Positions 60,916-64,000 are shown, counted from the stretch's first letter. The stretch is 64,000 bases of DNA from an uncultured Methanosarcinales archaeon (GCA_964396095.1 CAYNCK010000024.1:8079-72078); one strand, 5' to 3'. Notes: generated from the sequence alone by a model not told the origin. Program-made: numbers and translations.

Positions 60916-61941
60916 ATGGCAAAGAATAAGCCGAAAAATATTCTTAAAAATATAATTTTGCTAGTTATAGTTCTCTTGGTTTTTCTCGCTTTACTTGAAA
61001 TTATTTTGAGGATAACCTACCCTATTTATTCAAACTATAACACTGAAATGTGGAGATATTCAGTTCTTTTGAAAAGAGCCAGCCCCAATCCAAATGTTTC
61101 CCATGAGCATATACCAAACACCGAAGCATTCCTGTACGGAGTTGATGTAAAAATAAACTCTTATGGATTCAGGGACAATGAATATTCATTGAAAAAGCAG
61201 GACAACACTTATAGGATTCTAATTTTAGGCGATTCATTCACTCTTGGGTGGGGCGTGCCAATTGATGATGCCTATTCAAAAGCCCTTGAGAAAATGCTGA
61301 ATGAAAACATAAAAGGGAAAAAATTTGAAGTAATCAATACAGCTTTGGGCAATTACAACACTCAGATGGAATACGAGCTTTTGAAGGAAAAAGGAATCCA
61401 ATTCCAGCCTGATATGGTTATAGTCGGCTATTATCCCAACGACCCTGAACTGACTGTTAAATTCGACGACAAGGGAATTTCAACATTCGTGAAAAGGCAC
61501 AGCTACATTTACGTGTTTTTCTGGGACAGGATAACCAAGCTGCAGACAAGAATTCAATTGGCAGGCAACAATGGCCCTTACACCGGCTATGTTCATAACC
61601 TGTATAAAGGCGATTTTGAAGGCAGAAAAATAATGGAAAGCTCACTGAATGGAATTATCGATTTAAGCAAAAAAAATAATGCAACTCCTGTCGTTGCTGT
61701 TCTTCCTCAGTTTTTCGGCAAATTTGAGGATTATGAGTTCAAGGAAATCTATCCTGCCGTGAGCAACATCACAACAGGAAAGAATGTCTTAGCCATTGAC
61801 ATGCTGCCGTATTTCAAAAATCATGAGGTAAGGGACGTGATTGTTTCATTTGAAGATGCTCACCCAAACAAGCTCGGCCACAGCATAATAGCAAAGGCAA
61901 TTTACGACAACATTTACGGGATTGTATCAAAAAAGAAATAG
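60916..61941 (+). CDS. Membrane-anchored SGNH/GDSL hydrolase-family protein
   Basis: N-terminal TM helix, YRILILGDSFTLGWG (block I GDS), and EDAHPNKLGH (block V DxxH). Confidence 0.75.
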   Translation: MAKNKPKNILKNIILLVIVLLVFLALLEIILRITYPIYSNYNTEMWRYSVLLKRASPNPNVSHEHIPNTEAFLYGVDVKINSYGFRDNEYSLKKQDNTYRILILGDSFTLGWGVPIDDAYSKALEKMLNENIKGKKFEVINTALGNYNTQMEYELLKEKGIQFQPDMVIVGYYPNDPELTVKFDDKGISTFVKRHSYIYVFFWDRITKLQTRIQLAGNNGPYTGYVHNLYKGDFEGRKIMESSLNGIIDLSKKNNATPVVAVLPQFFGKFEDYEFKEIYPAVSNITTGKNVLAIDMLPYFKNHEVRDVIVSFEDAHPNKLGHSIIAKAIYDNIYGIVSKKK

Positions 61942-62188: not shown

Positions 62189-63403
62189 ATGCTTTTACTC
62201 CAAGAGCCTTCAATTTTTAGGTCAGTTCTTGAGCCTTATACAAAGCTTTTATTCGGGGATTATTTCAACACAGGGCTTCTGCTGGTATTTGGGATTTTGT
62301 TTGCTTTAATTCTTTACACAATCCCAAAAAAATTCAAGTTCAAGGCAATTTTAACAGCAAGCATCATTTTTGCATTAATCTCGTCAACATTTGCAAATTT
62401 TATTTTGTTCATCATTATTGTAGTGATCCTTTTTTTCTGCTCAAATTATAATTTCAGGCTAAAAAATATTTTATTCTGGCTTACGGAGGCATTTTTGCTG
62501 ATATCAACAATGCTGGTTTTCAGGATTTTTAAATATCATTCCGCTTTCTATTCATTTGCAGCTTATTACACCATGTACCGCTCAATCCACTATTTTGTTG
62601 ACGTGAAGCAGGGCTCTTTGAAGAAAGTTGGAATTATTGATTACATAAGCTACTTGTTTTTCTTCCCGTCATTCTCCCATGGGCCTGTTGAAAGGTTTGA
62701 AAATTTAAATTTAGAGAATGTAAATAAAATCCATGTAGTATTTGGGTTTAAAAGAATCCTGGTTGGAATTGTAAAATACGTATTATTGCTTTATGTTTTT
62801 TCTAAAATACCTATAATTCCGTTCTCATTCAGTAATTTCTTGCAATGGCTCGTCTATACCGCTTACGGGAATGCCATTAAGCTTTACGTGCTTCTGTCAG
62901 GTGACATAGATATAGTAATTGGAATATCATCGTTGATGGGGTTCAAAATAAGTGAGAACTTCCCTAAATTCCCCTACATTCAGGAGACCCTGACAAAATT
63001 CTGGCAGAACTGGCAGGCAACGATTGTCAGCTGGCTCACAGCCTACGTTTACTTTCCTCTTTGCAGGAACAGGAAATATGTTTACCTGAAGACGATGATA
63101 ATAATTATGATAATAGGCTGGGCGCATTTGTTTTATTATTTTCAGGATTTCCCATCCACAGAATACATTTTGTATTACACTTTGTGGGGAATATTCTTAG
63201 GAGGCACATTTGCATTGTCAAAAGTTATTGAAAAAAAGAAAGCAGATTCAAGAAAATCAGTCGAGGCAAAGCACCCTTCAATTGCAAAAATCCTATACGC
63301 TGACAATATTTTCACAAAATCATTAAACACCTTCATTACCTTCAACATAATTGCAATTGGATGGCTTTCACCATTGTACATATTGCTGGCAAGCTTACGA
63401 TGA
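62189..63403 (+). CDS. MBOAT-family membrane O-acyltransferase (DltB/AlgI-like), with Gln at the canonical His position
   Basis: FFFPSFSHGPVERF aligns with FFPqliAGPIvR. LSGDIDIVIG aligns with FSGYSDmaIG. ENFPKFPYIQETLTKFWQNWQATIVSWLTAYVYFPL aligns with ENFn.PY.a.si.eFWRRWHISLStWlRDYlYiPL. Confidence 0.75.
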   Translation: MLLLQEPSIFRSVLEPYTKLLFGDYFNTGLLLVFGILFALILYTIPKKFKFKAILTASIIFALISSTFANFILFIIIVVILFFCSNYNFRLKNILFWLTEAFLLISTMLVFRIFKYHSAFYSFAAYYTMYRSIHYFVDVKQGSLKKVGIIDYISYLFFFPSFSHGPVERFENLNLENVNKIHVVFGFKRILVGIVKYVLLLYVFSKIPIIPFSFSNFLQWLVYTAYGNAIKLYVLLSGDIDIVIGISSLMGFKISENFPKFPYIQETLTKFWQNWQATIVSWLTAYVYFPLCRNRKYVYLKTMIIIMIIGWAHLFYYFQDFPSTEYILYYTLWGIFLGGTFALSKVIEKKKADSRKSVEAKHPSIAKILYADNIFTKSLNTFITFNIIAIGWLSPLYILLASLR

Positions 63404-63744
63404 TACTCAACATAGGGATAGACATAGAGAAAATTTCAAGGTTCAAAGGCAAAAGCAAGAGTCTGCTGGCCAGGATTCTTACTGGAAGGGAATTGAAATC
63501 CCTGAAAAATAAAAATTCACAAACAATTGCGGGAATTTTCTGCGCAAAGGAAGCAATTATCAAGGCATGCAGCATAATAGAAAAAATAAATTTCAATGAT
63601 ATTGAAATTTTTCATAAAAAGAATGGCATGCCTTTTGTCAAAATAAAAAATTTAAAGAAGATAAGCTCAAAAGATTTAAAAATAAGCATCTCGCATTCAA
63701 AGGATTATGCAGTCGCAGCTGCAGTTCTGCTAAAGGTGATTTAA
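63400..63744 (+). CDS. acpS: Holo-[acyl-carrier-protein] synthase (4'-phosphopantetheinyl transferase)
   Basis: MILNIGIDIEKISRF, FCAKEAIIKA and ISISHSKDYAVAAAVL. ATG at 63400 forms an ATGA overlap with the MBOAT stop. Confidence 0.8.
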   Translation: MILNIGIDIEKISRFKGKSKSLLARILTGRELKSLKNKNSQTIAGIFCAKEAIIKACSIIEKINFNDIEIFHKKNGMPFVKIKNLKKISSKDLKISISHSKDYAVAAAVLLKVI

Positions 63745-63972
63745 ATTAACGAAAAATTAAGGGGAATATGCACAAAAGTCTTCAACATTGCCCCAAATGA
63801 AGTATCTTCTGATATTTCAAAAGCAAACACTCCTGAATGGGATTCCCTAAGCCACCTGATGCTGTTGACCGAAATTGAAAAAGAGTTCAAAATTAAGTTC
63901 ACTGCAAGCGAGACAATCAAAATTAAATCAGTTGAAGACATTGAAGCAGTTCTAAAAGGAAAAGGGTTATAA
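63745..63972 (+). CDS. Acyl/peptidyl carrier protein (DltC/ACP-like) with no canonical start codon
   Basis: My translation: INEKLRGICTKVFNIAPNEVSSDISKANTPEWDSLSHLMLLTEIEKEFKIKFTASETIKIKSVEDIEAVLKGKGL. The DSL Ser sits at the usual ~35-aa position. It is in the same frame as acpS and starts right after the acpS TAA. The first codons are ATT AAC GAA, and there is no in-frame ATG, GTG or TTG before the DSL motif. Confidence 0.65.
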   Translation: MNEKLRGICTKVFNIAPNEVSSDISKANTPEWDSLSHLMLLTEIEKEFKIKFTASETIKIKSVEDIEAVLKGKGL

Positions 63973-64000
63973 ATTCTGGGATGTTCTTAGATATAGTGCA

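Follow-up and report, generated by a model that had tools for sequence, protein, structure and literature searches.

How a gene that lacks every usual start codon can still be translated is the question raised by a small carrier-protein gene lying at the end of a 64,000-nucleotide stretch of archaeal DNA (hereafter the window; contig C24:8079-72078), which comes from a 1.29 Mb metagenome-assembled genome (MAG) with 37% G+C and a completeness of 86% (GCA_964396095.1, deposited as an uncultured Methanosarcinales archaeon). Archaeal start codons are usually taken to be ATG, GTG or TTG, and ATT is among the alternative starts included in NCBI translation table 11. In the window, acpS, the gene for holo-acyl-carrier-protein synthase (AcpS), ends with ...AAG GTG ATT TAA (stop at 63742-63744), and the next codon, the ATT at 63745, is the first of 75 codons whose product reads INEKLRGICTKVFNIAPNEVSSDISKANTPEWDSLSHL... 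and whose frame is closed by the TAA at 63970-63972. No ATG, GTG or TTG occurs in the carrier frame before the serine of codon 34, the first being the ATG of codon 39 (63859). A preliminary description of the locus had already pointed out this arrangement, together with a nearby ATG (63768) that is out of frame and reaches a stop after 10 codons, and direct reading of the sequence bore it out on every count. From the comparisons presented below, the probable answer to the question is initiation at the AUU itself, positioned by a Shine-Dalgarno site and probably coupled to the termination of acpS.

Both the sequence and the structural model indicate that the 75-codon frame is a complete acyl-carrier protein (ACP). 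Residues 4-69 matched positions 2-66/67 of the PF00550 PP-binding profile with 21.8 bits, above the cut-off of 20.8, and residue 1 aligned to position 4 of the NCBIfam acyl_carrier profile. The active-site motif is W32-D33-S34-L35, the codon of the phosphopantetheine serine S34 being located at 63844-63846, in agreement with the carrier nature and the DSL serine near residue 34 that the preliminary description had proposed. An AlphaFold model based on a 52-sequence alignment (predicted local distance difference test score, pLDDT, 87.8) placed helices at residues 2-13, 34-48, 54-59 and 63-72; this predicted fold is that of a four-helix ACP with Ser34 at the N-terminus of helix 2, and in a Foldseek comparison it aligned with the ACP of Escherichia coli over 71 residues with a template modelling (TM) score of 0.85. 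The carrier stayed below the cut-offs of the NCBIfam ACP equivalog models (29.8 vs 70 bits), indicating that it is not an orthologue of the AcpP of fatty-acid synthesis (FAS). Its phosphopantetheinylation by the adjoining AcpS is predicted from the sequence.

The unusual junction was recovered repeatedly. Logan contigs from three metagenome runs, belonging to two studies, covered positions 63717-63887 with zero differences, and GGTGATTTAA-ATT-AAY was also found in two other Woesearchaeota lineages. One of them, G034 (JAHFQA010000005.1), has a carrier with 76% amino acid identity to that of the window and the junction ...AAA AGG TGA TT TAA ATT AAT GAA AAA; the other, L105, is an ENA contig with the gene called in three samples, and its nucleotide identity is 87% to G034 and 76% to the window. 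The orthologous records JAHFQA010000005.1 and JAGVYA010000015.1 are those of Candidatus Woesearchaeota archaeon, which places the window genome among the DPANN archaea. Both G034 and L105 come from other studies, and they share the TAA yet differ elsewhere at 13-24% of their bases. A base-call error at the stop codon, one of the explanations offered in the preliminary description, could be argued from the low coverage of the source MAG (about 6x word depth) and from the fact that the authenticity of the junction rests on assembled contigs, which were compared instead of raw reads. Since the independent assemblies of three runs from two studies are identical, and since two other lineages carry the same TAA, such an error has a negligible probability, and the TAA-ATT junction is real.

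The carrier lies in a module ordered SGNH hydrolase, small membrane open reading frame (ORF), MBOAT, acpS, carrier and ligase. Between the window and G034 the proportions of synonymous and nonsynonymous differences in the carrier gene were pS 0.59 and pN 0.12, and the ratio of nonsynonymous to synonymous rates (dN/dS) was 0.11, within the range of its neighbours (0.04-0.13; SGNH 0.04, MBOAT 0.08, acpS 0.13 and ligase 0.10, from the same pair of genomes). The codons that differ between the G034 and L105 carriers comprised 18 with synonymous changes only and six with nonsynonymous changes. No stops or indels were observed in the 75 carrier codons in any of the three TAA lineages, all of which have retained the ATT. 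Codons 2 and 5 varied only synonymously (AAC/AAT and TTA/CTA), so that INEKL was kept, indicating that translation must span the first codons; the orthologues likewise conserve I-N-x-K near the carrier N-terminus. These comparisons indicate that the frame is under purifying selection and still translated. They also bear on the proposal that the carrier is a dead or dying pseudogene, the module being inactive or using another carrier, for which a nonsense codon at position 3, the lack of a canonical start and the patchy occurrence of the locus (present in 3 of the 43 species-level genomes of the genus) could be cited. Such decay is very hard to reconcile with a dN/dS of 0.11 when synonymous sites are near saturation, with a frame devoid of stops and indels in three lineages and in a genome of 37% G+C, and with partner genes that are all intact and equally constrained; moreover, no second carrier of this kind was found in the 86%-complete genome.

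Orthologue junctions were collected through the carrier itself and through the neighbouring ligase, and the nine other distinct junctions all had a canonical start. In eight of the nine, an ATG or GTG stands three codons upstream of the ATT position, the common pattern being [A/G]TG-NNN-AAA-ATY-AAY, often with an ATGA or GTGA overlap: ATG AGC AAA ATC AAC in L013 (with an ATGA overlap with acpS), GTG AGC AAA ATT AAT in G021 (= L014; with a GTGA overlap with acpS), TAG GTG AAT AAA ATC AAC in L015, GTG AGA AAG ATT AAT GAA in L096, GTG ATC AAA ATA AAC GAA in L097, GTG AGT AAA ATC AAC in L098, GTG AGC AAA ATC AAC in L103, and ATG GAA AAA ACC ... in L100 and L101. The ninth junction, that of L104 (ATG GAG GAA AAG CTT), has its Met in the exact column of the window's ATT. 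The window, G034 and L105 share GTG ATT TAA ATT AAY GAA, and the junction of this TAA clade can be written as the DNA pattern GGTGATTTAAATTAAY. In the gene table of the P0004 contig, the ligase is preceded by a normal call of 78 aa.

The third codon is AAA or AAG in all eight orthologues that start three codons upstream, and TAA in the window gene, and the starts of these orthologues indicate that the ancestral carrier began with M-x-K-I-N. The sequence of L097 illustrates how close the two states are: its second codon is already one for Ile, and a single A-to-T change at codon 3 would give TAA. In the ligase tree the window genome and G034 grouped as sisters with a support of 0.93, and lineages with canonical starts surrounded the pair, indicating that the TAA is derived and arose once. 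By this comparison, a single clade carries a derived nonsense mutation in which the AAA of codon 3 became TAA. The anomaly is also restricted in the wider family. About 88 homologous carrier frames, drawn from genomes and metagenomes, were compared, and a canonical start was present 30-45 codons before the serine in all but the window gene and its G034 orthologue; such an anomaly is beyond chance expectation. The paralogous carriers in that set (L005-L008 and most of L016-L092) lie in other contexts, e.g. after an FkbH-like gene, and served as a control for start position only.

The position of the carrier frame directly behind acpS, in the same frame, had led the preliminary description to consider an originally fused gene or a programmed AcpS-carrier fusion. 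The acpS tail is 1 nt shorter in the window than in G034, L105 and G021 (CTA-AAGGTGA vs ATGAAAAGGTGA), and for this reason acpS passes its usual TGA and extends two codons, to the TAA abutting the carrier frame; its C-terminus is ...LLKVI* here vs ...LMKR* or ...LVRR* in relatives (63728-63744), and the contigs of the three runs agree on it. In G034 and L105, acpS ends at the TGA within GGTGA, in a frame that differs from the carrier's, while in L100, L101 and L104 no acpS lies directly upstream of the carrier gene. As only the window's acpS tail is one base shorter, the sequences indicate that the same-frame acpS-carrier arrangement is a private accident of that genome. Neither an original fusion nor a conserved programmed one withstood the comparison of orthologous loci: no continuous frame or conserved recoding was found across the orthologues, which have two genes, with carriers started by ATG or GTG at the nine junctions and TAA-ATT at those of G034 and L105.

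With the canonical start severed, the surroundings of the ATT become informative. The most enriched pentamers before ATG starts in this genome were AGGTG (6.4x), GGTGA (4.7x) and GAGGT (4.6x), and the spacer from GGTG to the start was most often 5 nt (24 cases), followed by 6 nt (17 cases). The arrangement GGTGA-N4-6-ATG was detected in 64 ORFs, many of them with A/T-rich spacers, e.g. aaaaGGTGA TTTTA ATG. The window junction, AAAGGTGAT TTAA ATT, has a GGTG-ATT spacer of 6 nt, which puts the ATT at working distance. Met occupies the exact alignment column of the ATT in L104, L017 and L020, and a Met placed at the ATT would be 33 residues before the serine, within the family range of 30-45. Furthermore, the distance from the acpS stop to the ATT is 0 nt in the window genome and +5 nt in G034 and L105; termination-reinitiation operates at -8 to +10 nt in Haloferax volcanii and E. 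coli (PMC10666635), a range into which the acpS-carrier pair falls, and the gene overlaps suggest a shared transcript. No TATA-like box was seen, by eye only, about 25-30 nt upstream of the ATT, where it would bear on the idea of a leaderless internal transcript. Initiation at AUU combined with reinitiation is favoured by the Shine-Dalgarno spacing, by the start position of the family and by an acpS stop within reinitiation range. Termination-reinitiation, which the preliminary description had listed as a separate option, thus survives, and together with initiation at the ATT it forms the best explanation; we infer from the sequences both the use of AUU as the start codon and the respective shares of Shine-Dalgarno-driven and coupled initiation.

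That description had named ATA beside ATT as a possible start, and a start further downstream (the ATA of codon 8, the ATT of codon 15 or the ATG of codon 39) would yield a shortened protein. Gene finders do call products of only 37 aa here and 52 aa in G034, and a G-rich AAGGGGA precedes the ATA at 63766. Nevertheless, a downstream start is improbable: the 37-aa product is without the phosphopantetheine serine and the 52-aa product without helix 1, the AAGGGGA abuts the ATA directly and has no conserved counterpart in G034 or L105, and codons 1-5 (INEKL) hold their amino acids through synonymous changes, in line with the I-N-x-K of the orthologues. The ATA of codon 8, which would cost half of helix 1, is accordingly the unlikely member of the earlier pair, while the ATT gains from its Shine-Dalgarno site and from the selection acting on the codons that follow it. 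The AAGGGGA also precedes the out-of-frame ATG 63768 inside the carrier gene (63760-63800), probably by chance, because this ATG is absent in G034 and L105. A frameshift from ATG 63768 was rejected as well: its product, MHKSLQHCPK, is not ACP-like, relatives lack the ATG, and conservation extends over the INEKL codons.

The proposed course of events would be the following. The carrier gene once started three codons further upstream, at a GTG or ATG (M-S/N/I-K-I-N...) that overlapped the stop of acpS. Codon 3 then changed from AAA to TAA in the ancestor shared by the three Woesearchaeota lineages, which severed this start, but the gene remained functional. Ribosomes would now most likely start at the AUU at 63745, the ancestral Ile4, which the initiator tRNA would decode as Met; between this AUU and the GGUG of the strong Shine-Dalgarno site AAAGGUGAU, inside which the relic GUG is found, there are 6 nt. 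Termination-reinitiation at the acpS stop would probably assist initiation at the AUU, and the product would be a normal-length ACP of 75 aa (MNEKLRG...), to be phosphopantetheinylated by AcpS.

Several points weigh against initiation at the AUU. In E. coli, AUU reached about 1-2% of AUG in one set-up (10.1101/063800) and about 0.3% of AUG as cited in PMC10666635, and archaeal aIF1 destabilises non-AUG initiation complexes (PMC6237735), so the output of a carrier that its pathway uses stoichiometrically may be low. The anti-Shine-Dalgarno sequence was taken from motif enrichment, the 3' end of the 16S rRNA not being in the MAG. A genome-wide search for GGTG-N4-7-ATT/ATA/ATC starts gave only noise besides the carrier gene; with no other credible ATT start found, relaxed start choice is not general in this organism. 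In addition, the 5-nt spacer, TAA included, is identical across lineages that are about 59% diverged at synonymous sites. A simple Shine-Dalgarno-plus-AUU start does not need this identity, which hints that the adjacent stop matters, via reinitiation or via hopping. The 18 nt at 63732-63749 form an identical run that ranked only 6th by length within the 4.9 kb compared (72% identity), and the conservation of the junction is suggestive, not decisive.

The hint is relevant to an alternative in which the relic start is still used. Ribosomes starting at the GUG at 63736, as in the ancestor, or in the window genome perhaps also arriving from acpS, would decode the AUU and reach the UAA, where either the peptidyl-tRNA-Ile would re-pair with the AUU 6 nt further on (a stop-hop) or the UAA would be misread, the products being M-I-N-E-K... 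in the relatives and, in the window genome, an AcpS-ACP fusion as well. Matched codons do flank the stop in all three lineages, ATT TAA ATT, a configuration known from synthetic constructs (Weiss et al. 1987, in PMC5009743); all three have kept the ancestral GTG, and the entire GTG ATT TAA ATT block is identical although pS is 0.59. On the other hand, no natural in-frame hop is known (PMC5009743), and the GTG is embedded in the Shine-Dalgarno site and is without such a site of its own. Furthermore, were translation to come from upstream of the TAA, full expression would be regained through seven of the nine possible single-base substitutions in this codon, and such changes should have become established; three lineages have nevertheless kept the TAA, and this retention fits a start at the AUU, or a restart beside it, better than a hop. 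As for read-through, UAA is the main stop of the genome, ending 573 of the 963 ORFs of at least 150 aa (60%), and no ochre suppressor was seen, as no UUA anticodon occurred among the 14 tRNAs reported by ARAGORN, a weak test that misses archaeal tRNAs with introns. The out-of-frame acpS of G034 and L105 makes a fusion impossible as the mechanism shared by the clade. Hopping or read-through is, on balance, an unlikely source of the carrier. A recoded TAA was excluded, given that TAA closes 60% of the long ORFs and the carrier gene itself.

A more far-reaching version, to which we give somewhat less credence still, holds that AUU-UAA-AUU is a natural, selected stop-hop, or else that AUU reinitiation is obligatory after a mini-ORF, GUG-AUU-UAA. 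If true, the stop-hop would be the first natural in-frame one, and in an archaeon, with some AcpS-ACP fusion in the window genome, whereas reinitiation after the two-codon mini-ORF would explain why the stop was kept beside the AUU in three lineages. The derived nature of the TAA, the relic GTG inside the Shine-Dalgarno site and the ATT-TAA-ATT stop-hop configuration all go beyond the preliminary description.

Initiation at the AUU can be set beside known systems. The AUU starts of E. coli infC (encoding IF3) and pcnB, the only two confirmed non-canonical starts in that species (10.1101/063800), similarly belong to selected, intact genes in which AUU is the only possible start, behind a Shine-Dalgarno site. 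Unlike them, the carrier gene resides in an archaeon, with aIF1, aIF1A and aIF2 rather than IF3, and there is no sign of autoregulation; its AUU would be a recent evolutionary rescue after a nonsense mutation, stop-adjacent and limited to one small clade, and not an ancient conserved feature. The start region of Pyrococcus abyssi aEF1A, GGAGGUGAUUUAAAUG, which has been used as a model of a strong archaeal initiation site (PMC6237735), has the same Shine-Dalgarno core and spacer (GGUGAU-UUAA), with AUG replacing AUU. Coupled gene pairs (Huber et al. 2019, PMC6728339; PMC10666635) are comparable to the ATGA and GTGA overlaps of the orthologues and to the distances of 0 or 5 nt seen here, but the cited experiments used canonical starts, whereas the restart codon would here be AUU, and the coupling is one that we infer. 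Lastly, the take-off and landing codons on either side of the stop in AUU-UAA-AUU are identical, as in the synthetic stop-hops, which are limited to E. coli constructs of low efficiency, with no natural case known (Weiss et al. 1987, reviewed in PMC5009743).

The features of the locus and of the module upstream are listed in Table 1.

Table 1. Coordinates of the carrier gene, its junction with acpS and the upstream genes of the module, in window positions.
Feature	Position	Strand	Evidence
SGNH/GDSL hydrolase-type gene, first of the co-directional module	60916..61941	+	PF13472, E 1e-8; 80% identity to G034
MBOAT (DltB-like) membrane O-acyltransferase	62189..63403	+	PF03062, 32.5 bits; TIGR04091 (DltB), E 1e-23, below cut-off
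acpS, holo-ACP synthase, 114 aa	63400..63744	+	PF01648, E 2e-16; TIGR00516, 71 bits vs cut-off 59.8
Putative Shine-Dalgarno site AAAGGTGAT	63732..63740	+	Enriched motif and spacing; identical in G034 and L105
GTG, relic of the ancestral start, in the carrier frame, followed by ATT TAA	63736..63738	+	Eight of nine orthologue junctions start at the same position
TAA, derived nonsense codon at ancestral codon 3, doubling here as the acpS stop	63742..63744	+	Orthologue comparison, ligase tree
ATT, proposed initiation codon (ancestral Ile4)	63745..63747	+	First codon past the stop; 33 codons before the serine
Acyl-carrier protein gene, 75 codons plus TAA	63745..63972	+	Pfam, NCBIfam, structure, fold search, dN/dS
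ATG in another frame, opening a 10-codon ORF that does not belong to the gene	63768..63800	+	Sequence; ATG absent there in G034 and L105

The TGA of the MBOAT gene overlaps the ATG of acpS (ATGA). The last gene of the module starts 34 nt past the carrier stop, just outside the window, and extends on C24 to about 73743; its product, a 552-aa adenylating enzyme, is closest to the fatty acyl-AMP ligases (FAAL; NF006624, E 2e-104, below cut-off), not to DltA. The module resembles the Dlt system (DltA-DltC-DltB-DltD) in having an adenylating ligase, a small carrier, an MBOAT protein and an SGNH-type protein, with AcpS added here. It differs in that the DltB model gave 84 bits vs a cut-off of 375, in that the ligase is nearest to FAAL, and in that its host, a DPANN archaeon, has no teichoic acids; no gene of the module matched the DltC or DltD equivalogs, and the likeness to Dlt is architectural only. 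Judging from these sequence matches, the module may load a fatty or other acyl group, not D-alanine, onto a surface glycan of the DPANN host.

The carrier genes of L100 and L101, found via the ligase matches P0010 and P0011, lie directly after MBOAT with no acpS between them, and in L104 the MBOAT gene is on the opposite strand, indicating that the position of the phosphopantetheinyl transferase (PPTase) gene in the module is variable. The window and G034 are also identical over 28 nt at 63953-63980, a run that covers the final codons of the carrier, its TAA and, within the 34-nt spacer that leads to the ligase gene, ATTCTGGG. Only two identical runs are longer in the 4.9 kb compared (72% identity), and this one may represent a conserved signal in the translation of the ligase or in the processing of the transcript. 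With regard to the genome as a whole, several of the 14 tRNA genes that ARAGORN reported in the MAG contained introns, and the call for one tRNA switched between Gln(CTG) and 'Pyl(CTA)' with the intron setting; standard tRNA finders run in bacterial mode are poorly suited to the host archaeon.

The public gene calls reflect the missing start codon. They give 37 aa in the window, from the ATG at 63859 and without the serine, and 52 aa in G034 and L105, without helix 1; full 75-aa products beginning with M were absent, by exact match, from a collection of 15 billion proteins. An annotation made from such truncated calls would report the acylation module as carrier-less. The locus also offers an evolutionary before-and-after, in which the canonical start is found three codons upstream in most relatives and was lost in one clade, where the gene was kept with only AUU. 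This is comparative evidence that AUU, when it lies behind a strong Shine-Dalgarno site or beside a stop, can serve an archaeal ribosome well enough to sustain a functional gene.

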